Below, one piece after another: positions 4,911 to 61,204 of a stretch of DNA of 64,000 nt. The notes beneath the pieces are model-generated. The model did no database searches and was not told the DNA's origin. It was given only the letters and a program-made list of their open reading frames with translations. Both the position numbers and the translations under genes were made by a program. Source of the stretch: Euryarchaeota archaeon SM23-78 (GTDB taxonomy: Archaea > Nanobdellota > Nanobdellia > Woesearchaeales > SM23-78); assembly GCA_001595785.1 (NCBI GenBank), contig LSSJ01000021.1:5248-69247 (forward strand), written 5' to 3'. Position 1 is the stretch's first letter. Every line of letters starts with the position of its first letter.

Positions 4911-4942
4911 AGGCTTACTCACAAAGGAGGTGAGTATAAACA

Positions 4943-6517: not shown

Positions 6518-6544
6518 GCAAAAAATAAACAAAGGAGGTTGTCT

Positions 6545-7267: not shown

Positions 7268-7279
7268 AAGGAGGTAAGT

Positions 7280-9691: not shown

Positions 9692-9782
9692 AGTTCAAGT
9701 GCAGTTCAAGGAAGGGCGTTGTTGGTTAATTTAATCTTCAGCGCCCTTTCCTATTTCTCAATTCTAAAAAAGGAGGTGATGT

Positions 9783-10625: not shown

Positions 10626-10635
10626 GGAGGAAAAC

Positions 10636-11520: not shown

Positions 11521-11627
11521 GGATGTAAGTAGGATGCAAGTCTGGATGCTAAAACACAAGGGGGCTCCCTGACAATACCAATGCAAATATTTGGAATGTC
11601 AAAGCCCCATTTCCCCTCTGAAAAACT

Positions 11628-11685
11628 GCGCCTTGTCAAATAATTGAACAGACAGAACTGAGCCGGACGAGGCGCTTGCCTTGAA
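11628..11685 (+). promoter_or_regulatory. conserved upstream block W2 (GCGCCTTGTCA..TGAACAG..GGCGCTTGCCTTGAA), paralog of 10-63
   Basis: See W1. It ends 48 nt before ATG 11734, the first gene of the ORFan block. Confidence 0.35.
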
Positions 11686-11733
11686 AAAAACAGAGAAAAA
11701 TTTCTCGATTATAAATTATATAAGGAGAATGAA

Positions 11734-12420
11734 ATGCAAAGATATAAACTTGTTAGAATCTTTCTCTTAACTACTACTCTTTTAATCAATACCCCTTTGT
11801 TCTCTCAGTGCTTTGACTTAATCCCTAATAAGTCTGCTGATGAAGATAGAATTCTTAAATTGTTAGTAGTGGCTGATTCTGGGTACAGGGTTGAAGTAGT
11901 TAATTGGAGAAAAGAAATATCTAGAATAATTTCTACGATGTCTATGCTGCTTTCGGTTCAGAAAACAGGTCTTAGTTTAGAGATTACTAGATATGCACAC
12001 TGGCAGAGAGAAACAGAGAGTGATAAAGGCTTTTTATCTGTGCTCATTGAGTTAGAAAAAGATTTTCCCAGAGATAAGAACCAAGGTGTTGATATAATCA
12101 TGGGATTAACTTCTCATGGATTACAAGAAGCCCAAGCATGCGCTGATTCACAAAAGGGTTATATAGTATTAAGTAATAAGACCTTGGTCTCACCTTCTGA
12201 CCGACCAATACTGTTGGTTCCTGTTCTGATTCACGAACTAGGACATATCTTTGGGTGTAATGATGTTGATGGTAAAGACTCAGTAATGAAAAGAGCTATA
12301 ACCCTGATAAAAGGTCAACCCACTCCTGTGTTATACGACCAGAAGAGCCTAGAAAAAATAAGGGTAAATAAGTGGAGAAAGTTCCCAAGTAAGGTTAATT
12401 GGAGGGAATACCTAAACTAA
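11734..12420 (+). CDS. secreted zinc metalloprotease-like protein (HExxHxxGxxD, metzincin/snapalysin-like)
   Basis: Signal peptide present. Motif LIHELGHIFGCNDVDGKDSVM, that is HExxH followed by G, D and a possible Met-turn. Confidence 0.5.
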   Translation: MQRYKLVRIFLLTTTLLINTPLFSQCFDLIPNKSADEDRILKLLVVADSGYRVEVVNWRKEISRIISTMSMLLSVQKTGLSLEITRYAHWQRETESDKGFLSVLIELEKDFPRDKNQGVDIIMGLTSHGLQEAQACADSQKGYIVLSNKTLVSPSDRPILLVPVLIHELGHIFGCNDVDGKDSVMKRAITLIKGQPTPVLYDQKSLEKIRVNKWRKFPSKVNWREYLN

Positions 12421-22746: not shown

Positions 22747-24066
22747 TCAAAAGAAATCTCCTAACCCCGTCTGACTCTTCTTAACAGGCTCTTGCGGCTC
22801 TGCCGCAAGCTCAGAATCTTGTTTTGATTCTGTTGCTGGTTTAGGTTTGTCTTCCTTAAAAGCCTCTTCTCCATTAAGCAAAGGAACCCCGTATTCACCA
22901 TCAAAGCCAGGCTTAATCTCAAGTTTGCCTTCTCTGTTCTTTAAAATGGTATCAACCATCTTTTCATCAGCAACCTTGATAAGTTCTTCCTTAGGAACCT
23001 TAAGCAAGATGTCAAACTCATTCTTACCAGCCTTTAAGATTTCATAATACTTTACCCATACCTTCTTAGTAGCCATCCCGCTTTTTAGAACAAGCGATAA
23101 TATTTCATGCAAAGGAATAATCTTTTTAAAAGGCTTAGCATCTTTAGATTTTTCACCTATTTTTCTATCAGCTAATTCATCAACACGATTAAGAACACCA
23201 ATAGTTAAGGGGCGCTTACAAACAGGACACATACCATTATGCTTCTTACTTTCTTCAGGACTAAAACTAATCCCACAGTTCCTATGCCCATCAAAATGAT
23301 ACTTGCCATAGTTAGGGTCAACCTCTATGGTTTCAACTAATCCTTCATCTGTGCGTAAGGCTTTGATAAGGTTATTGTAAGTCAACTCTTTTAACTCAAA
23401 AACAGTTGATTCCCGCCCGATACGCCAAGGCCAAAAACTATGACTATCAGAAAAACTAACAAGACGATACTTATCAAGCTTTGATAAGCGCCAATTCATC
23501 TCAGGGTCACTGCTAAGACCTGTCTCTAAAGCATGAATATACTTTGCTTTATCACCAAAGCACTCCTCAACACTGTCAAAACCAGATTTAGAACCAAACA
23601 AGCTAAACCAAGGAGTCCAGATATGAGCAGGAATAATCTCAATATCTTCACTTATCTTCATCAATGCTTCAACAAACTCAGAGCAAGGAATATTAAACAT
23701 AGGTCTACCATCATAATCAACTCTTCCCTTAGATTTAAGATACTCAGTAATCTTATCAACTATCTCAAAGCTAGGAGCAAGCACAACAAGATGGATTCTT
23801 CTACCTTTATACTTCTGAGTATAGATGAGTGATATTTCATTCTGTAAAACAAAAGGAAAGCCATCCTTTGTCTTTAAAATACCAGTGCCATCCTCTTTAA
23901 GCTCTTTTTTCAGCTCCTTCTGCCATTCAGGATGAGAAAAATCACCAGTGCCGAGCAAACCCAAACCCTTAACCTTAGCCCATTTCTCAAGATTAGGAAT
24001 AGATAACTCTGCACTGCAAGCCCTTGAATACCTAGAATGCAGGTGTAAATCAGCTATTATTCTCAT
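22747..24066 (-). CDS. endoQ: endonuclease Q-like PHP-domain nuclease with zinc ribbon
   Basis: N-terminal DLHLHSRYSRA.. PHP motif, GTGD, SFSDSHS, a CPVCKRPLTIGVLNRV zinc finger, and a C-terminal GFDGEYG. Length (439 aa) and motif order match the archaeal EndoQ family. Confidence 0.75.
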   Translation of the reverse strand: MRIIADLHLHSRYSRACSAELSIPNLEKWAKVKGLGLLGTGDFSHPEWQKELKKELKEDGTGILKTKDGFPFVLQNEISLIYTQKYKGRRIHLVVLAPSFEIVDKITEYLKSKGRVDYDGRPMFNIPCSEFVEALMKISEDIEIIPAHIWTPWFSLFGSKSGFDSVEECFGDKAKYIHALETGLSSDPEMNWRLSKLDKYRLVSFSDSHSFWPWRIGRESTVFELKELTYNNLIKALRTDEGLVETIEVDPNYGKYHFDGHRNCGISFSPEESKKHNGMCPVCKRPLTIGVLNRVDELADRKIGEKSKDAKPFKKIIPLHEILSLVLKSGMATKKVWVKYYEILKAGKNEFDILLKVPKEELIKVADEKMVDTILKNREGKLEIKPGFDGEYGVPLLNGEEAFKEDKPKPATESKQDSELAAEPQEPVKKSQTGLGDFF

Positions 24067-24103: not shown

Positions 24104-26362
24104 TTAACCCTTCACTAACTCACTTATCAAGAACTTAAGCTCAACTATCATATCTTGCTTTTGCTCAGCAGCAACATAGGTGGCTAAGGGCAGTATCTCT
24201 GCTTTTTTATAAAAACCAGCAAACAGTATCTTTAAGAACAAGGGAATACCTGAGGATCTTAGCTTCATATTAAAGATATTATCATCAAACTCTTCTGGCA
24301 AGCCTAGGACTGCAGAATAGATTCTTAGCACTCTCTCATACACCTCTTTATCACCAACATCAAGCCTCTTGCCCAGCTCTGTTAACTCATTAATAAAGCC
24401 TTTAGCAACATCCTCACCAATCACAAGAGACTTTTTTCTCAGCTTTCTAAACAATCTATTCATCTCAATAAGAAAGGTAAAGCTGGTGTTATGTTCATAT
24501 AAGCCTCTAGCCCTCTCAGGATTCGCAAGTAAATAAAAGAAATAAGTGACAAAACCAAGGGGAATAACTGCTATGACTATAATAAGGATCAGAAAGAACA
24601 CAAAGAATCTTTGGAAATAATCATTAAGCGTACACTTCCTACACTCTCCTCCACAATCAACCAACCTTTCATCACCGTTCTTAATCCCATCATCACAAGT
24701 AGGACAAGGCTTGCAAAGCCCTCCACAGTCAACCCCTAATTCTCCACCGTTCTGAATACCATCAAAACAAGTACCACAACGCTTAGCACAAGGACCACCA
24801 CAATCAATACCCTCCTCACCCTGATTCCGGATACTATCATTACAGCTAGGAAAACTGCACACTAAATACTCACACCTCAGACTCTCACAGTCCTTGTTCT
24901 TTAAACAACTCTTACCTCCAGGGCACCTAGAACAAGGACCACCACAATCAATATCGCTCTCATTCTGGTTCTTAAGGCCATCAGTACAAGAAGGACAAGG
25001 CTCACAAGGACCACCACAATCAACACCCCCCTCACCCTGATTCTGGATACTATCATTACAAGTAGGACAAGGCTCACAAGGACCACCACAATCAACACCC
25101 TCCTCAATCCCGTTTTTTAAGCCATCATCACAAGTGGCATTGTAATCACACTGCCTTATCTCATCAGGCTTGGTTCGATTATCATTACAGTCATTAAGAT
25201 CAGTACAGTTTCTGAACATAAAACCTGCAGGCATACAAGGACTCCACTCAGTACAGTTCCAATCAGGGTCACACCCAACATGGTCTTGCTCTTCACACAC
25301 ACCACAATCAAAAGGACAAGTATGGCAGTCTTCTACTAAACTACACACATAGTCACCGCAGAAATCAGTTGTAGAAGTCTCTCTTAAGTCATTGAATTGG
25401 TCAGAAGTAACTACATCAACCCCTACAATATTACTCTCAGTGCTTAGATTCAGAATATCATAAGCAGTAAAAACAAAATAAGCACGACCCTTAGTGTTAT
25501 TCATAGGAGAATAAGTAATAAAGCCAGTTCTATCAATAATCACACTTATATTAGCATAAACAATTCCTGGTAATTCATAAGCAGGATTAACCTGTTTATA
25601 CTCAAATCTAAGTCGTCCACCATCAGGGTCTGCAAAGTAATCATTAAGATTATAAGCACCCGCATCTGTATTCTTAAAAAGAATAAAGCCAGGAATAAAG
25701 AACATTAACACAGGGGGTCTATTAACCTTTGATATCTGAACATACCATGTTTCAGTGTCAGAGAGGTTATGAGTATCAGTCACTCTTACACTAATCTCAT
25801 GTACCCCTGCATATTTATAACCTGGTCTAAAAGTAAAAACTGTTTCATTAATTGATTCATTAAAAAGGTCAGAGTCAATAAACCATTCATAAGTAAGAGA
25901 GTCATTAACATCCCTGTCCCTTGCTTTTGCACTAAAATCCAGATGTTGGGTCTGATTAATCTCAACAGTAGAATTAATGGGTTTATAAGAAGTAAACTCA
26001 GGTCTATCCCAGACTTTAAGCGTAATCACCAAGGTATATGCACAATCCTCTATAACAGCAATCAAGCCTATCCTCGCACTCCCAACATCATCAGAGCTAG
26101 GAGTAAACTTCATAACACCATCATTATTAATATATATTCCTGTTAATCTCCTATCAAGGAAAGCAATATTGTAAGAAACATTTTCTTCATCCATATTGGA
26201 AAGATTAAAATCATACTCAAACAATTCATCTTCTGCTAGTTCAAAATAATTAATAGGCTTAATTATAGGAGTGTTCTTTGAGTCACACACAGCAGATAAC
26301 AGGCCTAAGCCTAATAAGAATAAAATTAGTAATACACCTATCAAAAAGGCATTCTTGTTCAC
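24104..26362 (-). CDS. large surface protein: signal/TM, Ig-like region, six Cys-rich DCGG modules, TM helix, cytoplasmic tail
   Basis: 752 aa. Six units of about 24 aa, CxDG(I/L)(K/Q)N(G/Q)xExxxDCGGxCxxC. TM helix FFVFFLILIIVIAVIPLGFVTYFFYLL near residue 600. Confidence 0.7.
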   Translation of the reverse strand: MNKNAFLIGVLLILFLLGLGLLSAVCDSKNTPIIKPINYFELAEDELFEYDFNLSNMDEENVSYNIAFLDRRLTGIYINNDGVMKFTPSSDDVGSARIGLIAVIEDCAYTLVITLKVWDRPEFTSYKPINSTVEINQTQHLDFSAKARDRDVNDSLTYEWFIDSDLFNESINETVFTFRPGYKYAGVHEISVRVTDTHNLSDTETWYVQISKVNRPPVLMFFIPGFILFKNTDAGAYNLNDYFADPDGGRLRFEYKQVNPAYELPGIVYANISVIIDRTGFITYSPMNNTKGRAYFVFTAYDILNLSTESNIVGVDVVTSDQFNDLRETSTTDFCGDYVCSLVEDCHTCPFDCGVCEEQDHVGCDPDWNCTEWSPCMPAGFMFRNCTDLNDCNDNRTKPDEIRQCDYNATCDDGLKNGIEEGVDCGGPCEPCPTCNDSIQNQGEGGVDCGGPCEPCPSCTDGLKNQNESDIDCGGPCSRCPGGKSCLKNKDCESLRCEYLVCSFPSCNDSIRNQGEEGIDCGGPCAKRCGTCFDGIQNGGELGVDCGGLCKPCPTCDDGIKNGDERLVDCGGECRKCTLNDYFQRFFVFFLILIIVIAVIPLGFVTYFFYLLANPERARGLYEHNTSFTFLIEMNRLFRKLRKKSLVIGEDVAKGFINELTELGKRLDVGDKEVYERVLRIYSAVLGLPEEFDDNIFNMKLRSSGIPLFLKILFAGFYKKAEILPLATYVAAEQKQDMIVELKFLISELVKG
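24632..25132 (-). repeat. tandem coding repeat (about 72-nt units) encoding DCGG Cys-rich modules
   Basis: Six modules from CDDGLKNGIEEGVDCGGPCEPCPT to CDDGIKNGDERLVDCGGECRKC. The off-frame ORF 24901-25107 shows the same periodicity (VLIVVVLVSLVLLV x3). Confidence 0.75.
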
Positions 26363-44599: not shown

Positions 44600-44742
44600 G
44601 GGCCGGACGAGACTTTCCAGGAAATAATTCCCTTTTGAACTCGCGACCACACGATTACTTTTCCTTATGATTAAAAGTCGTGTGCTCTAACTCCCAAGCA
44701 ATGCAAAATTGCAAAGGCTTACCAGGCTGAGCTACCGGCCCA
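44600..44742 (-). tRNA. tRNA-Lys(UUU) with three introns (D-loop, canonical 37/38, T-loop 59/60)
   Basis: Manual fold. Acceptor GGGCCGG/CCGGCCC plus discriminator A; D stem GCTC/GAGC; anticodon stem CACGA/TCGTG with loop CTTTTA|A; T stem GCGAG/CTCGT with loop TTCAAA|T. Intervening blocks lie at about 44691-44720, 44657-44672 and 44614-44634. No encoded CCA. Confidence 0.75.
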
Positions 44743-44807
44743 GATTCTCTGGCCGGCAAACAAAAATCGCTGAGCGATTTTTGGGCCGTCCAGTTCGCTT
44801 TTCAAGC

Positions 44808-44961
44808 GCCCTGGCCGGGATTCGAACCCGGGTCGAAGCCTTACCACGACTCAAAAATCATTAATGAATAATGATTATAAGTTCTCGACAGGGCTTCATG
44901 ATAGTTGCTGCAGGGAACCCCCGGACGGGTTACCGCTGGGCCAGACTACACCACCAGGGCT
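44808..44961 (-). tRNA. tRNA-Asp(GUC) with two introns (D-loop and anticodon loop)
   Basis: Acceptor GCCCTGG/CCAGGGC plus discriminator G; GGTGTAGTCTGG..TCATG D-arm; anticodon stem AAGCC/GGCTT with loop CTGTCG|A; T arm CCGGG-TTCGAAT-CCCGG. Exon sequence closely follows typical archaeal tRNA-Asp. Introns at about 44905-44940 and 44843-44886; D-loop boundary is +/- a few nt. Confidence 0.7.
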
Positions 44962-45089
44962 TGCTTCGCAATCCCTGCTGGGCGTTCAAAAGCAAGTTTT
45001 GAACACACCAAAAGCTTTTGCTTTTGGGCACCAAAAACTTTGTTTTTGATGCACCATCAGGGCAGCTTACCTTTAACCATGAAGCAAGT
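44962..45089. other. multi-hairpin structured element upstream of tRNA-Asp
   Basis: Outer stem CTTGCTTC/GAAGCAAG and second stem CCCTGCTGG/CCATCAGGG enclose three 7-8 bp A/U-rich hairpins (GTTCAAAA..TTTTGAAC, CCAAAAGC..GCTTTTGG, CAAAAAC..GTTTTTG). Confidence 0.3.
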
Positions 45090-48126: not shown

Positions 48127-48678
48127 TTATATTGTATCCTTGCACTCAGAACACACCTTTGAGCCATCACTTGCTTCTTCTAGCTGAGGCGTATAGTTAC
48201 CGCAAACCTCGCATATGCCTTCGTTCTCATCACCGCCAAATACAGGCTTTCTGGCTTCTTCTCTTAACTCAAACTTCTCAACAATTATTTCAAAGAGCTG
48301 AGGCTCAATCTTAAGAATATCTTTTATGGTTAGGAAACCAACGAATTTATCATTATCAAGAACAGGCAGATGCCTGATGTTATGGTCTCTCATAATCTTA
48401 AGAGCATCATAAATATCTTTTTTAGGACTTACAGTCAAAATCTCTGTTTCCATGATCTTCTTAATAGGAGTTTTAGCAGGGTCTAATAGCTTGGCCATGC
48501 CTTTCCTTACCATATCCTGTTCTGTAACAATCCCAACGATTTTGCCTTTCTTCTCAATGAGCAAACTACCAACATGTTTACCAGCCATTATATCAGCACA
48601 TTTTTTTAGAGTGGTATCTTCATTAATAGTCACTGGCTTCTTGGTCATGGCATCGCCTACTTTATAACCTGTTTTCAT
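48127..48678 (-). CDS. CBS-pair domain protein with C-terminal zinc ribbon
   Basis: Two CBS motifs (..GSLLIEKKGKIVGIVTEQD.., ..HLPVLDNDKFVGFLTIKD..). CEVCGN..CSECK at the C-terminus. Confidence 0.8.
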   Translation of the reverse strand: MKTGYKVGDAMTKKPVTINEDTTLKKCADIMAGKHVGSLLIEKKGKIVGIVTEQDMVRKGMAKLLDPAKTPIKKIMETEILTVSPKKDIYDALKIMRDHNIRHLPVLDNDKFVGFLTIKDILKIEPQLFEIIVEKFELREEARKPVFGGDENEGICEVCGNYTPQLEEASDGSKVCSECKDTI

Positions 48679-48725: not shown

Positions 48726-48946
48726 AAAAAGCCCGTCCGGCGCAAGTTTTACGAAAACTTGACTAAAGTGTACTACACTCGCAACAAAAACGTTGCTCGG
48801 TAGCACGGATAGGGGACTCCGGCCGAAGGCTAGGAGTCGCCTGCCTTTTGTAAACTCATCAGAAATGCTTAGCATTTCTGGAAGTCCCAAAAAGCTTTGC
48901 TTTTTGATGACTTTTGGTAATGAGCGTTAGCGAACGGGCGAAAAGT
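48726..48946 (-). ncRNA. candidate structured ncRNA A (paralog of 60920-61145), class unknown
   Basis: TATA-like TTTAAATTAAAT lies about 30 nt upstream. The 5' GCCCGT can pair with the 3' ACGGGC, followed by TTTTT. Internal hairpins are present. It shares a 35-nt 5' block and a covarying hairpin with element B. The downstream CBS gene has its own TATA. Confidence 0.35.
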
Positions 48947-48948
48947 TT

Positions 48949-49086: not shown

Positions 49087-50970
49087 TTAATAATTAATCA
49101 TTATCTCAACATCCTTGCCGAATATACTCTTCAAATCCTCGAATATGGGCTCTTTGATAAACACTTTTTCTGGCATCTCAAGTCCTGTCAAGGCCTTCTC
49201 ATATTCTTCCAGAGAACTTGATTTTATGTTCTTCAATGAACCTTGTGCTGTGATGTCTGCCTTTGAGATGTCTTTATCCTCATTATCAATATCATGAATA
49301 ATAAAGGCCTTTTTACCTAGCAACACTACTTCTCCGAACTTATTGCCGTGCTTTACTCTTATCCTTGCTTTCTCAAGCTCTAAGCCTCTTTTTCTCTGGA
49401 TGTATTCTACCAGAAATCTTAAGAGTTCTCTTGAATCCTTTTGCACACTATGCACTTCTGCTTTGGTGAGCTTCTTAGCATCATAATCCTTTTTAGCCTT
49501 CTCAATCTCTTTAAGGATTCTTAGGTACTTCTCAGGCATGAGTCCTTTATGAACTACTTCCTCTTCAAAGGTCTTTATTATGGCAGTATCCCTGACTTTC
49601 TCAACTCCTTCCATTCTTAGGATGTCTCTAACAACTGTAACAATATTTTCATAGCTGTGAAGCACACTCTCCTCTTCTTTCTTCTTCTCAATGGCTTTGA
49701 ACAATTCTTCTAAACGCTTAAGATACTTCTCAGCATCCTTTAGCAGTTTATCAACCTCTGCTCCTGTGAGCTCCTTTTTAGTGCCGTGCTCAAGCTCTTT
49801 TCTAATCTCAATGTTTCTCTTTAGAATATCAATGTACTCTTTTTCTAAAAGCTTTTCCTTGTTAACAAAGATATCAGTCATAACCTCAGGAGTCTCCTTA
49901 GGGGTTGGTGGTGGTATACCGTACATCATAAGAGCTGCTTGGCTTGGGGTAAGGATTGCATAAAAGGTGTCTTCCATACCAATATCCTTTATCTTGAACT
50001 TAATCCTCTCAAGCATCTGTTCTCCTGTGCTCATAAACATGTCAATGGCTTCTGGGCTTGGCTTGATTCTTCCCATCTGCAACAGCAGCTTCCAGGGCAT
50101 GAATATGCCTCTGTCATAAAAAGGAATACCATCTCTAAGAAAAGTAAAGAAGATAGGATTAGCCTCTTTAATGCCCTCCCAGAAATCAGTAAGAATCCAG
50201 ACCTGAATATTTATCTTGTTCTCAATGCCTGTGAGCTTACCAGCTTCAAAGCCCATGCTAATAATTATAGCCCTAAGCTTATCCTTGAGTTCAGCCCTGG
50301 TCATCTTCTTAACATCAGTATCATCAACAATGATGCACACATCAATATCACTGGTATGAGTTGCTTTGCCCTGAACAATGCTTCCTGCTAATATATAAGA
50401 GACAATGTACTTCTCAAACTTCTTAAGCACCATGTTCTTATGAATCTCAGCTATCTTAATAGCTGCAAGCATGCCAGTATCATGCACAGGAGCACTCAAA
50501 GCAATCATCTGCAATATCTCATACTTGGCATCATAACAAGCCTGCCACACTTCTGTTAATATAATTGTCTTAGGAGCCAGGTTCTTATCCACCTCTTCTG
50601 CCATCTTATCAATAATACCGCTCAGTCTTTCCTTAAGCTCCTCCTTGGTCATTTTCTGAGAATCAGAATCATCAACTAATACAAGCACATTAATCTTTTC
50701 TTTTTTCTCATCTTCTTTGTCAGGTGGTAGAAGAGCAACCCCCATTATATAGCCTTCAAACTTGCTTACAATCTTGTCCTTAAAAGCCTCTAGCTTGTCC
50801 TTAATCTCTTCTAATCTCTTCTTAGCCTCATCAGGAATCTTCTCAGCCATTTTATCAAGTTCCTTGTTAAGAACACCATCCTTTTTCTTCTCTTCCTGCT
50901 TCTTAAGCACTTTTTCTGCTTCCTCTTTCTTAACAGCAGCTACTTTTTTTGCCTTCATCTTCTTTGCCAA
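49087..50970 (-). CDS. fused nucleotidyltransferase (degenerate + active minimal NTase) protein with possible HEPN-like C-terminal region
   Basis: GSIVQGKATHTSDIDVCIIVDD is a classic minimal NTase motif. An earlier NVLVLVDDSD segment lacks the GS/DxD residues. One Rx4H (RKELEH) lies in the helical C-terminal part. Confidence 0.45.
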   Translation of the reverse strand: MAKKMKAKKVAAVKKEEAEKVLKKQEEKKKDGVLNKELDKMAEKIPDEAKKRLEEIKDKLEAFKDKIVSKFEGYIMGVALLPPDKEDEKKEKINVLVLVDDSDSQKMTKEELKERLSGIIDKMAEEVDKNLAPKTIILTEVWQACYDAKYEILQMIALSAPVHDTGMLAAIKIAEIHKNMVLKKFEKYIVSYILAGSIVQGKATHTSDIDVCIIVDDTDVKKMTRAELKDKLRAIIISMGFEAGKLTGIENKINIQVWILTDFWEGIKEANPIFFTFLRDGIPFYDRGIFMPWKLLLQMGRIKPSPEAIDMFMSTGEQMLERIKFKIKDIGMEDTFYAILTPSQAALMMYGIPPPTPKETPEVMTDIFVNKEKLLEKEYIDILKRNIEIRKELEHGTKKELTGAEVDKLLKDAEKYLKRLEELFKAIEKKKEEESVLHSYENIVTVVRDILRMEGVEKVRDTAIIKTFEEEVVHKGLMPEKYLRILKEIEKAKKDYDAKKLTKAEVHSVQKDSRELLRFLVEYIQRKRGLELEKARIRVKHGNKFGEVVLLGKKAFIIHDIDNEDKDISKADITAQGSLKNIKSSSLEEYEKALTGLEMPEKVFIKEPIFEDLKSIFGKDVEIMINY

Positions 50971-52069: not shown

Positions 52070-53272
52070 ATGGCAGACACTCTTCTGAAATATGTTGAGG
52101 AGCAGCTAAAAAAGGGTTATAAACCAGATGCTATTAAGGCTTCGCTTATCAGGCAGGGCTACAGCCCAAGCCTGGTTGAGGGAGTGATTGATTCTGTGAT
52201 GATGAAGCAAACCTCTGCTAAAGGAGCTTCTACTCTGACTGGGGTGAGCCATGAGAAAACTGTTCTCTCAAAAGTACTCATTATCTTTGGATTCTTGGTG
52301 ATTGTGATTCTTGGAATTGTTTTTCTCCCAGACATAATAAAAGGAAAAGAGGCCTTGCTAGATGTAGAGGCAAGCCCTAACAAGCTCATATATTATCAAG
52401 GAGAAGAGCTAGGCTTTGATGTGAAGATTACTAACATGGGCTCTACCAAGGATCCCTTTGATACCAATCTTATCTATAGGCTGCTAGATGAGGATGAGAA
52501 CACTGTTCTAAGCAAGGAAGAGACTATTGCTGTAAGCACAACCATGAGTCATTATAAAACCCTTGAGTTGCCTCTTAATATAAGACCTGGAAGTTATACT
52601 CTAAAAATATTTGCTAATTATGAACAAAAAGTAGCTACTGCTTCCTTCTCTTTTAATGTAGAGGAAAAAACCACGGTTGTTGAGAGTTGCCATGACAATG
52701 TTAAGAACCAGAACGAGATAGCACCAGACTGCGGAGGAGTGTGCACAAGCATAAACGGAGCTTATTGGTATGATGGAGCGTGTCACAAGGAGCCAAAACC
52801 AGGGCCGCCTCCAAAAGAGACTTGTAATGATGGTATTAAGAATCAGGATGAGGTAGGACCTGATTGTGGAGGAGTGTGCGGAGGCTATTGGTATGATGAC
52901 TCTTGCCATTTATCTCCTAAACCTAAACCTAGCGATGAGCCTAGTGTGGCAGAAAAGATTATGCAAGCAAGTAGCCTTGCAAAGACTAACCCTGAGCAAG
53001 CAAAGAATATTTGTCTAAGCTTGGAAAACACTAATGATAAGGATAGGTGTTTGAAAACAATAGCTTCAATTAGTATGAAGAAAGAGTACTGTGATTTAAT
53101 AGTAAATGTAAATGAGAGAGATGAGTGCTATATTCCCTTCTTTATGCAAAACGATTTCTCTGTTTGTGAAAAAATAACTGACCCTCAGAGCAGAGCAGCT
53201 TGTGAGCAAATGAGAGATATATATCGAGTATTACAAGAGTTGAATCAGACGAATCAGACCAACCCTACATAA
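52070..53272 (+). CDS. membrane-anchored surface protein with Ig/CARDB-like domain and two DCGG Cys modules
   Basis: GGAGAGGTGA upstream. TM helix VLIIFGFLVIVILGIVFL. CHDNVKNQNEIAPDCGGVC and CNDGIKNQDEVGPDCGGVC (about 52688-52880). Confidence 0.6.
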   Translation: MADTLLKYVEEQLKKGYKPDAIKASLIRQGYSPSLVEGVIDSVMMKQTSAKGASTLTGVSHEKTVLSKVLIIFGFLVIVILGIVFLPDIIKGKEALLDVEASPNKLIYYQGEELGFDVKITNMGSTKDPFDTNLIYRLLDEDENTVLSKEETIAVSTTMSHYKTLELPLNIRPGSYTLKIFANYEQKVATASFSFNVEEKTTVVESCHDNVKNQNEIAPDCGGVCTSINGAYWYDGACHKEPKPGPPPKETCNDGIKNQDEVGPDCGGVCGGYWYDDSCHLSPKPKPSDEPSVAEKIMQASSLAKTNPEQAKNICLSLENTNDKDRCLKTIASISMKKEYCDLIVNVNERDECYIPFFMQNDFSVCEKITDPQSRAACEQMRDIYRVLQELNQTNQTNPT

Positions 53273-53303: not shown

Positions 53304-55610
53304 TTACTTAAACACAGGCATTACTTCTGCTTTATAAGTTCTAGAATAATCATCTATTTTATCCATCTCTTCCAATTGTTCTAGACATGCTCCTGGAGGA
53401 ACACTGTTTTGTAGGTTGGGTAGTTTTAACACTCTGAAATCAAGCTCTTGGCTGTTGTCAAGCTGTGCTGAGGTTATTTTTAACAAACCTGTTGTACTAG
53501 TTTTTATCTCTACTCCTCCCCAAGGAGCCGGATCTAAAACAACCTCTGGGTCAGGGAAATAGGTATGCTCTGTACACCCAATACCAAGTAAACCTCTCTT
53601 GCTACACACCCTTGAGCAGTTTGCAGGGATAGTAACACCATTATAATCAATAAGATTAGCTGTTACCTCATACTCACTAGGCACTAGTTTTATAGCGCCC
53701 TTACTAACACCTTCCCTTCCAAATATTATTGTATTTGTTAACGGACTGGTTCCTGCTTCAAACCCTGTCTGAGTAATGGTCAGTATTACTTGTTCAGCTC
53801 CCTCATCAATACCCTGTAATAAACCTATGCTGTCAGGCCCTGGTTCCCATTCCCAATCATCATTCCTATTAAATATTTTCTGTATCTCAAGCTTCTTAAC
53901 ACTAGCATTAATCTCTCTTATTATCTCAAGCTTTTGAGTTGGGAGCAAAGCCCCTTTTCCTTCCTGGGTGCTGAGCATAATTGTTTTTGAACCATACCCC
54001 TCCTTACTGAGAGCAAGGTATCCTCCTTGACATATTGGAAGCTTGCCTTTCCACTCACCTGCTGTGTCTGTTATACCCGCCCAGCACTCATCATAATCAC
54101 CACAGCCATAACTCACACTTACTCCTTCAAGAGGAGCTTTATGCTTTGCATCAGTTGCTCTTAAACTAACCTCTCCTGATAACCAAGTGGCTTCATCACA
54201 GAACAAGCTCTTAGTGGTGCTTCTTGGTTTTAAATTAATTGGATTACCATCAGCATCATGAATACTATCTTCTGGAAAGGTGAAGGTTGTATTAATATAG
54301 GAATAATCCCAGTCAACTGTTCCTAGCCCAAGATTCCATGCTAACACTCCTTTATTCTCAATTAGATTACTTTCCAAGGCAAACAGGAAGCTGTACTCTG
54401 GGATGTCTGTTGTTGGCTCATAACCCCTTATCTCAACAATAACAGGGTAAGCAACATCATAGTAGAACTTATAAGTATTGAATTCTCTCTTAGGAATATA
54501 CTGGTTACCTTCTTGTACCTCAATATTTGGCTTTATACGGTCTCCTTTTGAAGGCTGAACCCTCATGCTTAGAGTGTTATCAGGATAAAAAAAGGTTATT
54601 GCTATGTTTGGCAGGCTCTCATTGAATATCTCCATGCTTAGACTCTTATAAAAAGAAGCCTCAACATCATCTCCTTGAACTGTTATTGGTTCATAACCCT
54701 TTGTGCCTACTACTTGTAGAGTAGGGGTATAGCTCCTTAAGAGCCCACTAAAATCAGTCCAAACCTTGATGTTGCTCCAGGTAATCACATAAGGTACATT
54801 GGTGTAGTCTATCATTGGTGGAAGCATGTTAGAGTCAAGCCCTGAGTAATAAGATATAAGGCTGAGGGTAAAGCTTTCTAAGAACTGGCTTATTAGTTCT
54901 GCACCCATCATGTTAAGAGCAAGCTCATAATATTTTTTAAAAGGAAACCTTACTATGTTATGGTGTTGTTTAATCCTTGCCTTAACATTCTCTTTGGTCA
55001 GGTTTAACTCATAGTTAACATAGAATTCTATCTTATCATCTTTTATATAAGTGGTTGTTTTAATATTATCATCATCAGCATCAACATCATATTGTTTTTC
55101 TAATTCTTTAAATCCTCTAGTGCATTTAGGGAGTTCTCTGCTCATATACACGCTAAGCTGATACTCCATGCTCTGAATAGTTGGAGCAAATGAACCTAAT
55201 CTGTAGTTAAGATAATCTGATTTGCCAGGAACATGTAGATAGTAAGGCACAAGCCCATCCTCATCCCCTGTTAATGAGGTTAGTTCATAGCTTGTTGGTG
55301 CACTAGGATTATACCGCAGGAGGACTGGTGTAAGCTCAGAGTCTAATGGATCAATGTATCCTCCATGCATACCCATCTCCTTTAATGCTTTTATTCCAAC
55401 ATCATGTATACAGGCTTCTACATAGGAACTTACAACCTTGAATTCTTCTGGCACCTCTTCTACTTCAGAACCGTCTTCAATAGAAAGTCTTCTAAAAACA
55501 GCAAAGTATAATATCAGGAATGCTATTAAAATGACTAATGCAAGAATCACAAACAAGGTAATCTGAGCCTTTCTTTCACCTCTTTTTTGAAGCATTTTTG
55601 CACCGTCCAA
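53304..55610 (-). CDS. large extracellular protein with type IV pilin-like (class III) signal peptide
   Basis: N-terminus ..KRGERKA|QITLFVILALVILIAFLILYF shows basic residues, a small residue, Q, then a hydrophobic helix. 768 aa. Alternative start at 55595. Confidence 0.55.
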   Translation of the reverse strand: MDGAKMLQKRGERKAQITLFVILALVILIAFLILYFAVFRRLSIEDGSEVEEVPEEFKVVSSYVEACIHDVGIKALKEMGMHGGYIDPLDSELTPVLLRYNPSAPTSYELTSLTGDEDGLVPYYLHVPGKSDYLNYRLGSFAPTIQSMEYQLSVYMSRELPKCTRGFKELEKQYDVDADDDNIKTTTYIKDDKIEFYVNYELNLTKENVKARIKQHHNIVRFPFKKYYELALNMMGAELISQFLESFTLSLISYYSGLDSNMLPPMIDYTNVPYVITWSNIKVWTDFSGLLRSYTPTLQVVGTKGYEPITVQGDDVEASFYKSLSMEIFNESLPNIAITFFYPDNTLSMRVQPSKGDRIKPNIEVQEGNQYIPKREFNTYKFYYDVAYPVIVEIRGYEPTTDIPEYSFLFALESNLIENKGVLAWNLGLGTVDWDYSYINTTFTFPEDSIHDADGNPINLKPRSTTKSLFCDEATWLSGEVSLRATDAKHKAPLEGVSVSYGCGDYDECWAGITDTAGEWKGKLPICQGGYLALSKEGYGSKTIMLSTQEGKGALLPTQKLEIIREINASVKKLEIQKIFNRNDDWEWEPGPDSIGLLQGIDEGAEQVILTITQTGFEAGTSPLTNTIIFGREGVSKGAIKLVPSEYEVTANLIDYNGVTIPANCSRVCSKRGLLGIGCTEHTYFPDPEVVLDPAPWGGVEIKTSTTGLLKITSAQLDNSQELDFRVLKLPNLQNSVPPGACLEQLEEMDKIDDYSRTYKAEVMPVFK

Positions 55611-55615
55611 AGTTT

Positions 55616-56440
55616 TTAATTTTTTATGTGCTTAGTAATATTAATAATATATATAATATAATTCCTTACCCACCCCATGAAAAACAGGGCAAATATTAAG
55701 GTGATTATTGCGAATAAAACAGGGATTTCAATGAACAAACCAGTGATTAAGAGCAGGATTAACATTAGTAGAATGGCTGTGATTAAGAAAAATATAAACC
55801 AATGAACTCTCTTAATACATTTAAAGAACTTGGAAAAGTTCTGTCTTAGAGTTTTCTTTTCATCAAAAACAGTTCTAAGGGCAGGGTCAGAGTAGAGGAA
55901 GAACAAGAATTCAATTAGAATAAAAAAGGTTGCTACTGGAATTACAAAAACATTTATGGTTATAATAAGAATTATTATCCAAGCAATTAACCACACAAAA
56001 TTCAGTAAAAAATATTTTCTAAAAGCAAGTGTACTGAACTTTTTCTTCAATCTTATACTCCAAGCCTTGCCATAGAACAAAGAGATAAAGAAGACTAAGA
56101 GTAAGCAGGTAATAATAGAGATGATAAGGGACAGCCATAAAACCCTGTTAAGCACAGGAGCAAACTCTACTATTGCTTGTTGAAAAACCTCTTCATTACC
56201 ATTTTGCCCTAACTGATAAACATTTAATAATTTAGGAAAGGCTGGTACACTTACAAGATTGATGAATAAGGCACCTATATTCAGGACAATAAGAATGGCT
56301 ATTAAGGTTAAGAAGTCATAAAGCATGGCTTTAAAAAAAGCCTTGTTAGGAATATTCCTAAAACTCGCTAATAAGGCGTCTCTTTGAGTAAGCCAGTACT
56401 TAGTGCTCTTGCTCTTTTTTTGTTTTCTAATCATCCTCAT
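55616..56440 (-). CDS. hypothetical polytopic membrane protein
   Basis: 274 aa with about 6 TM helices. 4-nt overlap with the upstream gene. Confidence 0.55.
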   Translation of the reverse strand: MRMIRKQKKSKSTKYWLTQRDALLASFRNIPNKAFFKAMLYDFLTLIAILIVLNIGALFINLVSVPAFPKLLNVYQLGQNGNEEVFQQAIVEFAPVLNRVLWLSLIISIITCLLLVFFISLFYGKAWSIRLKKKFSTLAFRKYFLLNFVWLIAWIIILIITINVFVIPVATFFILIEFLFFLYSDPALRTVFDEKKTLRQNFSKFFKCIKRVHWFIFFLITAILLMLILLLITGLFIEIPVLFAIITLIFALFFMGWVRNYIIYIINITKHIKN

Positions 56441-57099
56441 TTTTCCACAACACTAACAATCACCTCATTAACCACAGTACTTCCATAATCCCTGTACTCA
56501 AGCACAACCTTATCATACTCTTTTTTAAGGTAACGAGCATCAAAGCCACTATCACCAACATATCTACTCACATCTTCCCAATCAGTATCCTTAGTGCCTT
56601 TCTTGCCAACAAAATACTCTTGATCAGAGTCTTTTTTAAGATAAACCCTGTACAAAGCATCATTACTATAAGGCATGATATACCAAGAAACTGAGTAAAG
56701 ATAGGTATTGTTAAAGCCTTTCTGCTTTATAGCAGAGACTGTGACGGTAGTTGTATAAATTCTCCACTCCTCCTCAATATCTTCCATAACAACATTCCTA
56801 ATATTCATTACATCAGTTGTAAGACCAATAAGACACACCTCTCTCTCCCAGTTAGCCAAGCCAAAGAAAGTATCATTATACCAACCATAAACATCAGCAT
56901 TATCATAAGGGTTTATCTCGCCTTTGGGAGGAATAAAAGGCCATAAAGAGTACCAGAAATTATGAAGAACATTTGATTGATTCCCACCATAATCCTTAAA
57001 CCATCCAGGCCTATAATCATCAACAGACACTCCTATTACAAGGAAACAATTAATCATGAACAATAATACAGTTATTACTACAAGTTTCTTAATCATCAT
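56437..57099 (-). CDS. hypothetical membrane-anchored protein
   Basis: I prefer the start at MMIKKLVVITVLLFMINCFLVIGV (57099), which overlaps the upstream stop (ATGATGATTAA). The tracked ORF extends to 57192. Confidence 0.5.
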   Translation of the reverse strand: MMIKKLVVITVLLFMINCFLVIGVSVDDYRPGWFKDYGGNQSNVLHNFWYSLWPFIPPKGEINPYDNADVYGWYNDTFFGLANWEREVCLIGLTTDVMNIRNVVMEDIEEEWRIYTTTVTVSAIKQKGFNNTYLYSVSWYIMPYSNDALYRVYLKKDSDQEYFVGKKGTKDTDWEDVSRYVGDSGFDARYLKKEYDKVVLEYRDYGSTVVNEVIVSVVEK

Positions 57100-60000
57100 A
57101 ATCCACCCCATAACAAAAGTCCATCCCAGTAGCAGGAATATCAACAGGTGCATTGCCTGCAAGAGGGTTAAAACGATTCTTAGCAAAAGCAATTATTTCT
57201 CTTAAACTAAGTAAGCTGCCAGAAACACCGCAAGCAGCAGCTCTCCAGCCTTTGAGCACACCTCCAAAGTCAAGGGTTGCACCACCAGGCACCTGATAAT
57301 GCACACACCCAGGCATCACAAACAAGTAAGTAGTTGTTACGCCAAGACCTAAAAGGTTGCTAAAGAACACTCTTTTAATACTTCCAAGAATATTTCCTAG
57401 ATTAGCAGGACCCTCAATCTTATACCTAGCACTCTCAACATACAAGCACATATCTAGATTATACTCAAAATCACAAGCCTCTAAAGGACCTCCTTCCTTA
57501 ACCATCTGCTCAATACAACCAAGACGCTTACACAATATCTGTCTCTCCTTCCTATCATTAAACAAAATAGCAGGAGCACAGAACTTATCATAATGCTTGC
57601 TCTTATAAGGATTATAAATCCAGCTGCCATCATCACCCAAGAAAGCATCTATAGCATTCTGCATCCTGGTGTTAAGATTAAACCATTCTTTATTAGAGCC
57701 ATATAAATCAAAATTCTTAAAAGGATTAGTAACCCTGCCAGTGATTGAGTCTGAGTAAACAACATTACCTCCAAATAATTGGCTAATCCCTTTTTCAAAG
57801 CCCTTATATATCTTAGTATAATCTGTGTAGACTGGATATAACACATCATAAAGAGTGGTGAGCCCATATGCCTTTAAAAACCCATTTTGAACAGTTTTAA
57901 GTGATATAGACAATGAAGGGGTCTGCTTAGAGGGTTGTGGGGGGGTAACCTCATTGCTAACAACAGCTTTATTAGTCGTAGCAGGGTTAGGATTGCCAGA
58001 AGAGGGTGACGAAGGAGTTGTGGGTGAAGGGCCTGGGTATGTAAGTGGGTCTTCAAATACTTCTGGAGCTTGACTTTGGAGATTATTGAATTCTCTTGCA
58101 GGAGGTAAAGGTGTTAAAGGATTCCCTTCCATATCATATTTTTGAGATATTCCATTAGAGTTTGTTATTGTGTAAGTATTATCATCATTGTATTTTTTAG
58201 TGTAGGATACCTTGCCATTATCATCATAATATGCTACTGTTTTCCCGTCTCCTGAGATGTATTGTTTTATTTTGCCATTAGCATCATAGACAGTGACCTC
58301 TCCTGTTTGCCCATTATATATCTGGGTTTCTCCTGTTTCTTTATCTACTTGCTCTATTGTTCCATCTTCATAAACAGTTATGCACTCCTCATCATCACAT
58401 TGCCTGTCTGTAATTATTATATTATTCCTTGTCGCATAATACGCACCTATACTCACACCTATGTCTACATAGGTGTTGAAGTCATATAATTTGCATGTGT
58501 AGATTGCACAGGTTCCTTTTAAGAGTAATCCCACAGTGTTTCCTCCTGTTGGCACCCATCCTTGAGGCCAGGTGAATGAATCAACAAAGTTCTCAATGCC
58601 TGAGAGAAAAGGATTTACTGTGTTCCATATTACTTCTCCTATGCCTAGTGGTTCAAGAGCAACGCATAAACCCCAAAGAGCTGATTTAAGTGATTGTAGT
58701 ACTTGATTAACCTTGGCTATTCCTTCTGCAAGATTACACAGGGTTCCAAGATAGGTGTACACCTTTGCATACTTATCTATTTGTTTGTCAAGTCTTATTA
58801 TCTGTTTTTTTATCTCATCCACTTTTTTCTGATAAGATTCATTAAGAGTGCCTAAGGGTTGATTAAACACCTCTAGCTCTGCTGTTATGTGTTCTTCTTC
58901 TGGCAAGGTATATATCTTGTTACCATGCTTTATCATGAACTCTTGAGTGCAGTTAACTTTTACCTTATCATCCTCATCCCACTCTTCATCATATTTTAAA
59001 GGAATGATAAGGATTGGTTTTAGGTCTTCATCATTCATCATATAAGCCTGACCTGCCATACCAGGAGTGTCTGAACAATCAACAATGGTAGTCTGCGTTA
59101 TCTCAACATCCTTGTTCTTTTTTATTATCTCAAGAGATAAGGGTGTTTTCACTGTTATCCTACTAGCTGTTCTTCTATCAATCTTAGGCAGCTTTCCCTT
59201 TGTTATTATCTTATCAATTAAGACAGGGACTTGGGCAAGTTCAACACATATACTTACAGGAACACTCTTGATTAACTGGTTACCTGCAAAGTCCTCCACT
59301 ACAAGGTTTAAGTTAGTGTTTATCTCCTGGGCTTTTAGATTGCTTATGCTCAGAGTGCATGCCCAGTTATTACTTGTACCTATTTGTACACAACTAGCTT
59401 TGCTCTCATTATCACTACTAATACCAAGAGTATAAGCACTTGCTGTTACTCCTAAGCTCTGGGCTTCAGTAACATTAAAGGTTATATAAAGGGTTTCTGT
59501 ACTTGTTGGACACTCTGGTGTTGTGTTAATCTCTCCTAATATATTAGGAGGTGTTGAGTCAATCACAATGATTAGGTCTGATTCTGCTGTGAGATGGTTT
59601 CCTAAGTCATCAAAGCCTTCTAAGTTTAGCTTACCACTAAAACTACTAACATCTGCTGTGCAAACCCAGGTCTGGTTATAGGTACAAGCAGCCTGAGTGT
59701 CTTCTATCCTTACCTTGCTCTCATTAAAGCTGCTGCTAGTAGAAATTTCTGCGGTTATCTCATTAGCACCTGATTTTAAGTAGCAGGTATCTTGGTAACA
59801 CTTATCAAGGGCTGGTCCAAGCCTGGTAACACTACCAGCATCATTAACCACTGTGAAGCTTAGCACAAGTGATTGATTAGCACTATTATCCATTTGATCA
59901 GTTGCTTTTACAGTGCATCTTGTGCTACTGCTGGCAGGGCTTAGCTTAATATTTTTAAAAGTGCATATATGTGTGTTGTTCCAGCCTTGTCTTAAACAAT

Positions 60001-60877
60001 CAGCACTAACCCCGCTCTGGTCTTTGCTCCTAGTTTTGTCAAGCTCTGAGAAATTACCACTAGCACTAACACTCATGGTATCCTCTTCAACCACTACTTC
60101 TACATCAACATCTATCACTCTTGAGCTATTAGTTGATATCTTACTAACCACTTCTTTGGTGCCTGCTTGGTAGACCTGTGCACTACTACTAATCTTTGGA
60201 GGAACAGTGTCAATAAACACTTGACTCTCACTAGTATTTGCTACTAGTCCTACATAGTCATAAGCTTTTAGACTAGCATTAACCTTTCCTATAAAGTTAG
60301 GAATGGTTCCAATAAGAAACCCACTAACACTGCACTGCCCTACAAGGTGATTAGTTGTGTTAATAACCTGTCTATTAAGGATTAGTTCTACTTTTTCAAT
60401 TCCAGAACATTTATTCAAGAAGTACTGGTTAGCCTGGTCTGTAATAGCATAACTTGCTTTTACTTTGTTCTTAAGGCTAGTAGGAGTAAACGATGATATC
60501 TTAGGCCCAAGGTTATCCACATAAGCCTCCACATTTTTCTCTGATTGAGACACATCCTCTTTTACAGTAGCGCTTACTTTACCCGTTACATTGGTAATAG
60601 GATGAGTGTATGTGCACTCCCAAGCAGTTGCTGGCTGAATACAAGTCATACTTTCATAAGTATTATTAGTAAAATCAGCTTTTACACTACATTTCATGGT
60701 AGACCTGGTGTTTATCACAAGAGTATCATCAGATCTTGTAATCCCTGGCACTTTATCTGTATCTCCATAAGCCTCTGCTTTGAAGATACTTGCAAATACA
60801 AGAGAGCTAAAAAAAGTCAATGATATTACAAGATAAATCATTAACAATGCTATTAGTTTACTACTCCTCACCTTCAA
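57089..60877 (-). CDS. giant secreted surface protein (1262 aa) with Ig-like repeats, YD-repeat-like stretch, PST linker and Cys-containing C-terminal domain
   Basis: Signal peptide MKVRSSKLIALLMIYLVISLTFFSSLVFA. VTVYDANGKIKQY, VAYYDDNGKVSYT and QKYDMEGNPL (about 58125-58400). Linker PGPSPTTPSSPSSGNPNPATT. Confidence 0.65.
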   Translation of the reverse strand: MKVRSSKLIALLMIYLVISLTFFSSLVFASIFKAEAYGDTDKVPGITRSDDTLVINTRSTMKCSVKADFTNNTYESMTCIQPATAWECTYTHPITNVTGKVSATVKEDVSQSEKNVEAYVDNLGPKISSFTPTSLKNKVKASYAITDQANQYFLNKCSGIEKVELILNRQVINTTNHLVGQCSVSGFLIGTIPNFIGKVNASLKAYDYVGLVANTSESQVFIDTVPPKISSSAQVYQAGTKEVVSKISTNSSRVIDVDVEVVVEEDTMSVSASGNFSELDKTRSKDQSGVSADCLRQGWNNTHICTFKNIKLSPASSSTRCTVKATDQMDNSANQSLVLSFTVVNDAGSVTRLGPALDKCYQDTCYLKSGANEITAEISTSSSFNESKVRIEDTQAACTYNQTWVCTADVSSFSGKLNLEGFDDLGNHLTAESDLIIVIDSTPPNILGEINTTPECPTSTETLYITFNVTEAQSLGVTASAYTLGISSDNESKASCVQIGTSNNWACTLSISNLKAQEINTNLNLVVEDFAGNQLIKSVPVSICVELAQVPVLIDKIITKGKLPKIDRRTASRITVKTPLSLEIIKKNKDVEITQTTIVDCSDTPGMAGQAYMMNDEDLKPILIIPLKYDEEWDEDDKVKVNCTQEFMIKHGNKIYTLPEEEHITAELEVFNQPLGTLNESYQKKVDEIKKQIIRLDKQIDKYAKVYTYLGTLCNLAEGIAKVNQVLQSLKSALWGLCVALEPLGIGEVIWNTVNPFLSGIENFVDSFTWPQGWVPTGGNTVGLLLKGTCAIYTCKLYDFNTYVDIGVSIGAYYATRNNIIITDRQCDDEECITVYEDGTIEQVDKETGETQIYNGQTGEVTVYDANGKIKQYISGDGKTVAYYDDNGKVSYTKKYNDDNTYTITNSNGISQKYDMEGNPLTPLPPAREFNNLQSQAPEVFEDPLTYPGPSPTTPSSPSSGNPNPATTNKAVVSNEVTPPQPSKQTPSLSISLKTVQNGFLKAYGLTTLYDVLYPVYTDYTKIYKGFEKGISQLFGGNVVYSDSITGRVTNPFKNFDLYGSNKEWFNLNTRMQNAIDAFLGDDGSWIYNPYKSKHYDKFCAPAILFNDRKERQILCKRLGCIEQMVKEGGPLEACDFEYNLDMCLYVESARYKIEGPANLGNILGSIKRVFFSNLLGLGVTTTYLFVMPGCVHYQVPGGATLDFGGVLKGWRAAACGVSGSLLSLREIIAFAKNRFNPLAGNAPVDIPATGMDFCYGVDYDD

Positions 60878-60919
60878 ATTAGATTTTAAGAATTGACGTA
60901 TTTAAATGTTGCGATTAAC

Positions 60920-61145
60920 TTTTCGCCCGTTCGCTACGCTCACTACCAAAAGTTAACAAAAGGCAAGCGGTTCCTAGCACAAAAACGTGCCGGAACCCCT
61001 TATAGGCTGAGCAAGGGTGGGTGAGGCCTATTTGCGAGGGCAACATCTACTTTATAATCAAAGCGGAACAGGGGGACGCCCCATCCGGGGAGGTGAAGCT
61101 CTCGGTTAAGTAAACGTGCCTGAGCTGGCCCCACCCTTGCGAAGC
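60920..61145 (+). ncRNA. candidate structured ncRNA B (paralog of 48726-48946), class unknown
   Basis: TATA-like ATTTAAAT lies about 14 nt upstream. It shares the 5' block TTTTCGCCCGTTCGCTACGCTCACTACCAAAAGT and hairpin GGTTCC..GGAACC with element A. In the 3' domain, GCT-GA-GCAAGGGTGGG pairs with CCCACCCTTGC-GA-AGC. Confidence 0.35.
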
Positions 61146-61204
61146 ATAATCATACCAGAACTCAATGCTAATCCTCAATACAAAAATAACAACCCAAATC
61201 AAAA

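Follow-up and report, generated by a model that had tools for sequence, protein, structure and literature searches.

A five-gene surface module built around a g1/g4 core pair in Woesearchaeota and Nanoarchaeia: a candidate motor-less envelope complex

Envelope construction and attachment to partners are obscure in uncultured Woesearchaeota and related DPANN archaea, whose genomes are dominated by hypothetical proteins. A stretch of 64,000 nucleotides (nt) from Euryarchaeota archaeon SM23-78 (contig LSSJ01000021.1, positions 5,248 to 69,247; hereafter the window) contains four minus-strand genes at 53304-60877 in which a first reading, made from the sequence alone, recognized no protein family. 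What do these genes encode, and do they work together? We show that their products belong to a conserved set of co-evolving proteins, extracytoplasmic or membrane-bound, among which are neither enzymes nor motors; the products of this module very probably form one envelope complex. The explanation that we favor, with some reservation, is a lineage-specific, purely structural and motor-less complex anchored in the envelope of Woesearchaeota and Nanoarchaeia, with a presumed role in adhesion. Taken separately, adhesion or host contact as its function is possible but doubtful.

The four genes are labeled g1 to g4 in operon order. According to the list of open reading frames (ORFs), g1 (57089..60877, minus strand, 1262 aa) is followed on the same strand by g2 (56437..57099, 220 aa counted from ATG), g3 (55616..56440, 274 aa) and g4 (53304..55610). 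The latter is 768 aa long from a TTG start and 763 aa long from the ATG at 55595; the 763-aa form is the one on record in the protein collection, and an exact-sequence look-up of the 768-aa form returned no record. Read from the sequence, g1 and g2 overlap by ATGATGATTAA and g2 and g3 by ATGA, with a gap of 5 nt between g3 and the TTG of g4 (20 nt to its ATG). These junctions are present as first described, and the share of the window that had been put at about 12% measures 11.8% (7574 of 64000 bases). Since each gene has many homologues in which length and order are kept, g1-g4 are genuine genes and not chance ORFs. Hydropathy analysis detects a single N-terminal hydrophobic segment in g1, in g2 and in g4 (residues 15-33 of g4) and six in g3. 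The locus is indeed, as first described, an operon of closely packed genes for extracytoplasmic and membrane proteins. The surrounding DNA is archaeal housekeeping DNA (split RpoA and RpoB, methionyl-tRNA synthetase (MetRS) and a proton-translocating pyrophosphatase (H+-PPase)), and the window carries one copy each of the g1- and g4-family genes.

That these genes belong together is indicated by their neighborhoods in other genomes. Iterative hidden Markov models of each protein were run over the ORFs of 87 loci, and adjacencies were counted over the 83 non-redundant loci. The order g1-g2-g3-g4 is kept in loci whose g4 shares 46% (L001), 30% (L003) or 28% (L007) identity with that of the window, and it recurs in dozens of Woesearchaeota and Nanoarchaeia genomes, at identities as low as 25-30%. 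A lack of conserved synteny, which the sequence-only reading had named as the result that would speak against it, is thus not what we find. We distinguish three arrangements: type A, as in the window, consists of g1-g2-g3-g4 and then a gene with DCGG modules; type B is a g4'-g1' pair; and type C is g3''-g4'', with or without g1''. The three types often stand side by side in one genome, and many genomes carry two or three paralogous modules. A full g1-g2-g3 set lies upstream of 31 of the 106 g4-family genes, and a g1 gene immediately downstream of 42. Where at least 6.5 kb upstream and at least 3.5 kb downstream of g4 are available, a g1-family gene is adjacent in 39 out of 41 cases.

The DCGG gene of the window (52070..53272, plus strand) is convergent with g4 and encodes a 400-aa protein with two PDCGG motifs, which confirms the convergent surface protein already noticed next door. 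The protein has a small cytoplasmic N-terminal domain, a transmembrane segment (residues 69-87) and an extracellular part in which two PDCGG modules are combined with a helical, Cys-rich tail. A DCGG gene is found within 2.2 kb downstream of 20 of the 26 type A modules; in L007, L029 and L048 it is co-directional with g4 and abuts it. Because it follows the module in most genomes, we regard it as the fifth component. The conserved unit therefore comprises five genes, with the g1/g4 pair as universal core in several arrangements. The unit of four genes proposed at first holds for the gene order, but it has to be enlarged by the DCGG gene, and its core is the g1/g4 pair.

Fusions occur at two of the junctions. 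In P0037 (locus L007) and P0148, g3 is fused N-terminally to g4 with a KKGQ site and a Lys-rich loop kept and a consistent topology. In L062, L050 and L070, proteins of the g1 family carry the g2 domain as a C-terminal fusion (E 1e-36 to 2e-20). These fusions indicate physical partnership, with putative g3·g4 and g1·g2 sub-complexes. Conservation within the module is membrane-proximal (residues 6-420 of g4 and the C-terminus of g1), while the distal parts differ in length and in the number of repeats.

The absence of recognizable families, claimed from the outset, is upheld by our searches. Scans of g1-g4 and their homologues against Pfam, NCBIfam and PHROGs gave nothing significant, and single-sequence and profile searches of the PDB gave nothing below E 0.02. 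Matches to MORN_2, DUF3149 and CheD (E 0.03-0.06) among the four proteins and family members were dismissed as noise, and a Phlebovirus_G2 match in one homologue (E 0.008) was judged a Cys-rich artefact. The g4 family itself is large: homologues are full-length down to about 25% identity, and all are unnamed or labeled Woesearchaeota or Nanoarchaeota. A profile built from 26 g4 sequences and searched against 1.84 billion cluster representatives (50%-identity clusters) matches 9,017 representatives at E<=1e-3 and 1,657 at E<=1e-30; the best 150 matches all span the N-terminal ~420 residues. In a scan of the GTDB species genomes, 174 loci were confirmed, the best 80 of which all come from metagenome-assembled genomes (MAGs) of Woesearchaeota or Nanoarchaeia type. 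Some g4-bearing MAGs are labeled 'uncultured Methanosarcinales', which we take for a placeholder because these MAGs have the same synteny. A viral or mobile origin was rejected, as there is no PHROG match and no phage tblastn match and the locus sits in housekeeping synteny.

The N-terminus of g4 (MLQKRGERKA/QITLFVILALVILIAFLILYFAVF, with the slash at the predicted cleavage site) had been likened to a class III signal peptide, as found in type IV pilins and archaellins. The candidate EppA-type motif K9-A10-Q11-I12-T13-L14-F15 lies at 55551..55571 on the minus strand, and cleavage would fall between A10 and Q11. The leader is charged, with K/R at -2 and G/A/S at -1 before a hydrophobic H-domain of about 20 residues, as in class III signals. 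Q11, T13 and F15 do not vary among the 26 aligned sequences. Of 113 g4-family ORFs, 101 contain the pattern [KR][GAS]Q[IVTA][TS][ILV][FY], which no ORF outside the family shares in the 87 loci. Leaders are short: in most database proteins the Q falls between positions 5 and 13. The closest parallel is with the Epd pilins of Methanococcus maripaludis (PF04021, Class_IIIsignal/DUF361), which are cleaved by the dedicated peptidase EppA at RAQI, KGQV, KGQL and KGQI and for which a Gln at +1 is required (PMC4371748); EppA-type 'system 1' machineries and clusters have been reported in DPANN (bioRxiv 10.64898/2026.04.22.720090). Like these EppA substrates, g4 has a short basic leader and a site of K/R and G/A followed by Q and I/V, ahead of a hydrophobic helix of about 22 residues; the +1 Gln is present in the window and invariant in the family, and Ser/Thr is conserved at +3. 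Unlike them, mature g4 would be about 750 aa long with a new alpha/beta domain and is thus no small pilin, and its gene lies outside an Epd-like locus (ATPase, platform protein, EppA).

AlphaFold and Foldseek analyses, suggested earlier for all four proteins, cover g4 and the C-terminal half of g1. The AlphaFold2 model of g4 (26 sequences) reaches a predicted local distance difference test (pLDDT) score of 82.5 and consists of a transmembrane helix (residues 7-37), a disordered linker, an alpha/beta domain (50-425), a low-confidence loop and three beta-sandwiches (470-760). In the 763-aa form, the predicted layout is thus a short basic leader, the class III-type site KA/QITLF, a transmembrane helix at about 11-34, a flexible linker, the new alpha/beta domain and three CnaB/transthyretin-like beta-sandwiches. 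Foldseek searches of PDB and BFVD returned only generic beta-sandwich matches (CnaB2/transthyretin-like domains, Gram-positive pilins and adhesins) and no match to the N-terminal alpha/beta domain, and the invariant residues of the 26-sequence alignment include no catalytic-looking set. The three C-terminal domains superpose on CnaB2/transthyretin-like domains of Gram-positive sortase pilins and adhesins (TM-score 0.65-0.76 on target; E 1e-4 to 2e-6 for multi-domain pilins). Only this generic fold is held in common, however: g4 has no sortase signal and its N-terminal 420 residues are unrelated.

The partner protein g1 contains 32 Cys and 16 N-x-S/T sequons. A Sec signal peptide (residues about 1-29, VFA/S) precedes repeated beta modules of about 100 aa (36-545), a conserved beta-sandwich with a long helical region (546-815), MORN-like beta-hairpin repeats with a variable Pro/Ser linker (816-1060) and a C-terminal domain (1061-1262) that has eight invariant Cys and is found in nearly all g1-family members. 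Sec cleavage sites in the family are of the VFA/VYA/ALA type. The Sec-secreted nature claimed for g1 is thus upheld, but its Ig-like repeats are only weakly supported: profile self-similarity among three of the ~100-aa modules is limited to E 2e-4 to 4e-3, and Big_13 matches are found in three of 12 homologues and not in the g1 of the window. The AlphaFold2 model of the C-terminal half has a pLDDT of 52 and gave no Foldseek match at E<=1e-3, and a profile of the C-terminal domain searched against a collection of 5.8 billion proteins retrieved 12 unnamed fragments only. The g1 homologue P0053 (Woesearchaeota MAG JAFGRK01, locus L012) carries a PG_binding_1 domain inside the variable linker, and its NCBI name follows this domain. 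Such a domain is consistent with a binding role; though odd in an archaeal protein, it would also fit the published proposal that some Woesearchaeota associate with bacteria (PMC8204110).

Two further components complete the operon. The g2 protein has an N-terminal Sec signal and conserved residues W73, W84-E85, C89 and W139-Y140-x-x-P143. It had been described as membrane-anchored, but because its homologues have ordinary cleavable Sec signal peptides (ALA/A, VSA/A, ATA/P), g2 is more likely secreted than anchored. For g3, the six-transmembrane topology is confirmed, preceded by a Lys/Arg-rich N-terminus. In an alignment of 57 sequences, Met1 is the only residue conserved at >=80%, and no Asp, polar or catalytic residue is conserved; we therefore read g3 as a putative scaffold and not as a peptidase. 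A role as dedicated prepilin peptidase (Peptidase_A24, with the two catalytic Asp of GxGD-type enzymes) was rejected, given the missing conserved Asp and the absence of a Pfam match.

How could these proteins be assembled? In the envelope complex that we favor, g4 would be inserted via Sec and cut between A10 and Q11 by an EppA-like class III (prepilin-type) signal peptidase. Its hydrophobic N-terminal helix would stay in place as an anchor and pack on the six-transmembrane scaffold g3, which would form the membrane base. The membrane-proximal alpha/beta domain of g4 would dock the Cys-rich C-terminal part of the secreted g1, together with g2. On the outside, the variable beta-sandwiches of g4 and the repeat modules of g1 would form a projecting spike or fibril able to bind other cells or surfaces. 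Such a complex would work without a filament motor, in the manner of the Sulfolobus bindosome and not of a pilus. In the bindosome, large non-pilin extracytoplasmic proteins carry a pilin-type site and are placed in the envelope without forming a long filament (PMC4371748), as we infer for g4. Differences are also evident: in g1-g4 and their immediate neighbors no substrate-binding protein, ATP-binding cassette (ABC) or Bas domains were found, neither ABC permeases nor a Bas-like ATPase or membrane protein accompany the module, and g4 is partnered by a giant secreted protein rich in Cys, a second, small secreted protein and a six-transmembrane scaffold.

Several observations weigh against this explanation. 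Class III processing of g4 is plausible but unproven, and we judge its chances to be even. The N-terminus matches EppA-type sites in its near-invariant [KR][GAS]/Q, but the Glu expected at +5 (QxSxExxxL) is replaced by F in the window and by F/Y in the family. The window g4 matches neither Pfam model tried, Class_IIIsignal (PF04021) and Tad (PF13400), and its relatives give sub-threshold matches only; with PF04021, two out of ten g4-family N-termini score 9.5-11.5 bits, far below the gathering threshold of 23.7 bits. No A24 peptidase is present among the ORFs scanned in the window. The fusion proteins place a six-transmembrane protein of about 250-280 aa ahead of the g4 site, which would make an unusually long leader. 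Since the motif is confined to the g4 family in the sampled neighborhoods, it could also owe its conservation to packing of the helix on g3 instead of to a peptidase that recognizes it. The docking of g1 on g4 is pure inference, given the low confidence of the g1 C-terminal model. RNA runs containing the locus were not found; DNA runs that contain it are marine sediment and seawater metagenomes.

The packing argument leads to an alternative without class III processing, in which g4 is an uncleaved type II signal-anchor whose Q-x-T-x-F face packs on g3; any envelope role would then do, for example the uptake of host-derived material. The restriction of the motif to one family, the missing +5 Glu and the unmatched Pfam models all agree with it, as does the fact that window-type g4 is without exception preceded by g3 and in some cases joined to it via a topology-consistent Lys-rich loop. 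However, g4'-g1' pairs retain the same motif without an adjacent g3 gene, and the basic residue at -2 and the small residue at -1, which lie outside the membrane helix, are conserved as well, which is what prepilin peptidases need. We consider this alternative unlikely.

To a similar degree we doubt that the module encodes a two-component S-layer or envelope lattice, with g1 as glycosylated canopy and g4 together with g3 as membrane stalk, comparable to SlaA/SlaB of Sulfolobales. There is a resemblance in outline: a very large, beta-sandwich-rich secreted protein and a membrane-anchored stalk are encoded together, g1 combines a Sec signal with its N-glycosylation sequons and repeated beta modules, and g4 carries several stacked beta-sandwiches on its membrane anchor. 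The module is also found throughout an order-level lineage, beside housekeeping genes (MetRS, H+-PPase, RNA polymerase), and DPANN S-layers are uncharacterized (PMC6098224). On the other side, a lattice is difficult to reconcile with the two or three paralogous modules in differing arrangements that genomes commonly carry, with the high Cys content of g1, with distal regions that differ in length (one homologue even having a peptidoglycan-binding insert) and with the additional g2, g3 and DCGG components. SlaB is anchored at its C-terminus, whereas the anchor of the module is N-terminal. No sequence or fold match of the module proteins to SlaA/SlaB or to any solved S-layer protein was obtained, and Woesearchaeota MAGs already have S-layer-annotated genes among those most highly expressed (PMC11606122).

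A link to a true type IV filament would be expected to show in the gene neighborhood. Among the ORFs scanned in the window we found neither an ATPase nor a platform protein, and no co-located T2SSE and TadC/PilC-like platform genes. The 9-kb surroundings contain a T2SSE ATPase or platform gene in only about six of the 83 loci, L007 and L029 being examples with an ATPase and/or platform gene about 2 kb upstream, and no linkage was found beyond such sporadic cases. Small pilins with the g4 motif are absent from 1.2 Mb of neighboring sequence. In modular or minor type IV pilins that go with PilY1-type tip adhesins, and in the Ig-rich adhesin-like accessories of archaeal filament loci, a pilin-like N-terminus is likewise joined to bulky adhesive modules and paired with a large Sec-secreted non-pilin protein (PMC8179133); the module, by contrast, showed no DUF2341/PilY domain, no vWA domain and no beta-propeller. 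The least probable of the alternatives, that a system-1 (Epd-like) machinery encoded elsewhere extracts processed g4 to the tip or base of a pilus with g1 as a PilY1-like non-pilin adhesin, can point to the EppA-type motif, to sub-threshold TadE/G-like and Class_IIIsignal matches on several N-termini, to the two loci just named and to large Ig-rich adhesin-like and large class III signal proteins as common accessories of archaeal filament loci, but against it stand the neighborhood data, the 763-aa size of g4, the disordered linker that the g4 model has in place of a continuous pilin alpha-1 helix and the fusion to a six-transmembrane protein, which would impede extraction from the membrane.

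The envelope complex is of a kind already known, in that archaeal surface proteins using pilin-type signals and Ig-rich adhesin-like partners have been described, but for the protein families, the five-gene module and the paralogous arrangements we found no description in the literature searched. The g4 family is among the largest unnamed protein families measured here, and the module is present in at least 174 species-level genomes. It fills a noticeable portion of very small genomes and has an internal logic of core pair, fusions and paralogous modules. A bolder, and in our view somewhat unlikely, extension is that the g1/g4 modules represent an undescribed class of surface machine specific to Nanoarchaeia (Woesearchaeales and relatives), namely a motor-less, disulfide-rich spike on a pilin-type anchor, present in two or three versions per genome, with which these ultra-small archaea would recognize their host cells and hold or bridge to them. 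These hosts could include bacteria, as hinted by the peptidoglycan-binding insert in one g1 homologue. The module offers concrete targets for metaproteomics, cryo-electron tomography and heterologous processing assays, and it supplies candidates for the 'missing pilin-like substrates' that were pointed out for type IV filament ATPases of nanoarchaea.

Further features concern the start of the operon. The true start of g1 is probably the GTG at 60871, because the resulting N-terminus (MRSSKLIALLMIYL) agrees with the homologue consensus MRVxKLLALLMIYL. A TATA-box-like TTTAAATA, read from the sequence at 60899..60906 (minus strand), lies upstream of g1 at a distance of 21 nt from the TTG and 27 nt from the GTG, a spacing that would fit a leaderless or near-leaderless archaeal operon transcript. 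The intergenic region between g1 and the divergent H+-PPase gene (60905-61160) is a strongly structured element of about 250 nt that is GC-rich (57-59% vs. a background of about 38%) and closed by an 11-bp stem (GCAAGGGTGGG...CCCACCCTTGC). Its minimum free energy amounts to -91 kcal/mol (z -2.55) for the minus strand and -86 kcal/mol (z -2.1) for the plus strand. An Rfam search found no family even at E<=10; the element could be an undescribed noncoding RNA or a long structured leader. A segment of about 55 nt, AACTTTTCGCCCGTTCGCT(A)ACGCTCAyTACCAAAAGT..., is present at about 90% identity in 48829-48947 and 60917-60978, that is, upstream of a CBS-domain gene (48127-48678) and in the g1/H+-PPase intergenic region. 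Both copies are oriented toward the downstream gene (CBS and PPase, respectively), and the segment may be a common regulatory element or leader.

Further observations concern the rest of the window. Two GC-rich islands (up to 63% GC) lie at 44711-45019, between rpoB'/a 101-aa ORF and position 45347. They include a perfect tRNA-like acceptor/T-arm, CCGGGUUCGAAUCCCGG, at 44808-44850 (minus strand), which was found only as a sub-threshold mascRNA match. ARAGORN called no tRNA over the whole 64 kb, and the islands probably represent DPANN tRNA genes that contain an intron or are atypical in some other way. The first ~12 kb (1-12420) have a higher GC content (0.40-0.46) and contain bacterial-looking genes (OmpA-family, TelA, VWA, an ABC transporter with NMT1-like binding proteins and an M12-like peptidase), whereas 22-64 kb are clearly archaeal; the assembly could be chimeric, or the genes could have been acquired horizontally. 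At 24104-26362 (minus strand), the window encodes a second surface protein with DCGG modules: it is 752 aa long, has Big_9/Cadherin-like domains and also matches the profile of the DCGG protein (E 9e-17). Its gene adjoins a 439-aa ORF (22747-24066) to which no family was assigned. Finally, a 627-aa NTP_transf_2 and HEPN-like protein (49087-50970, minus strand) has counterparts in L001, L003, L010, L012, L019 and L020. It is 67-73% identical across genomes whose g4 identity is only 30-46%, and its gene stays within a few kb of the module, which makes it a very conserved cytoplasmic protein of unassigned role.

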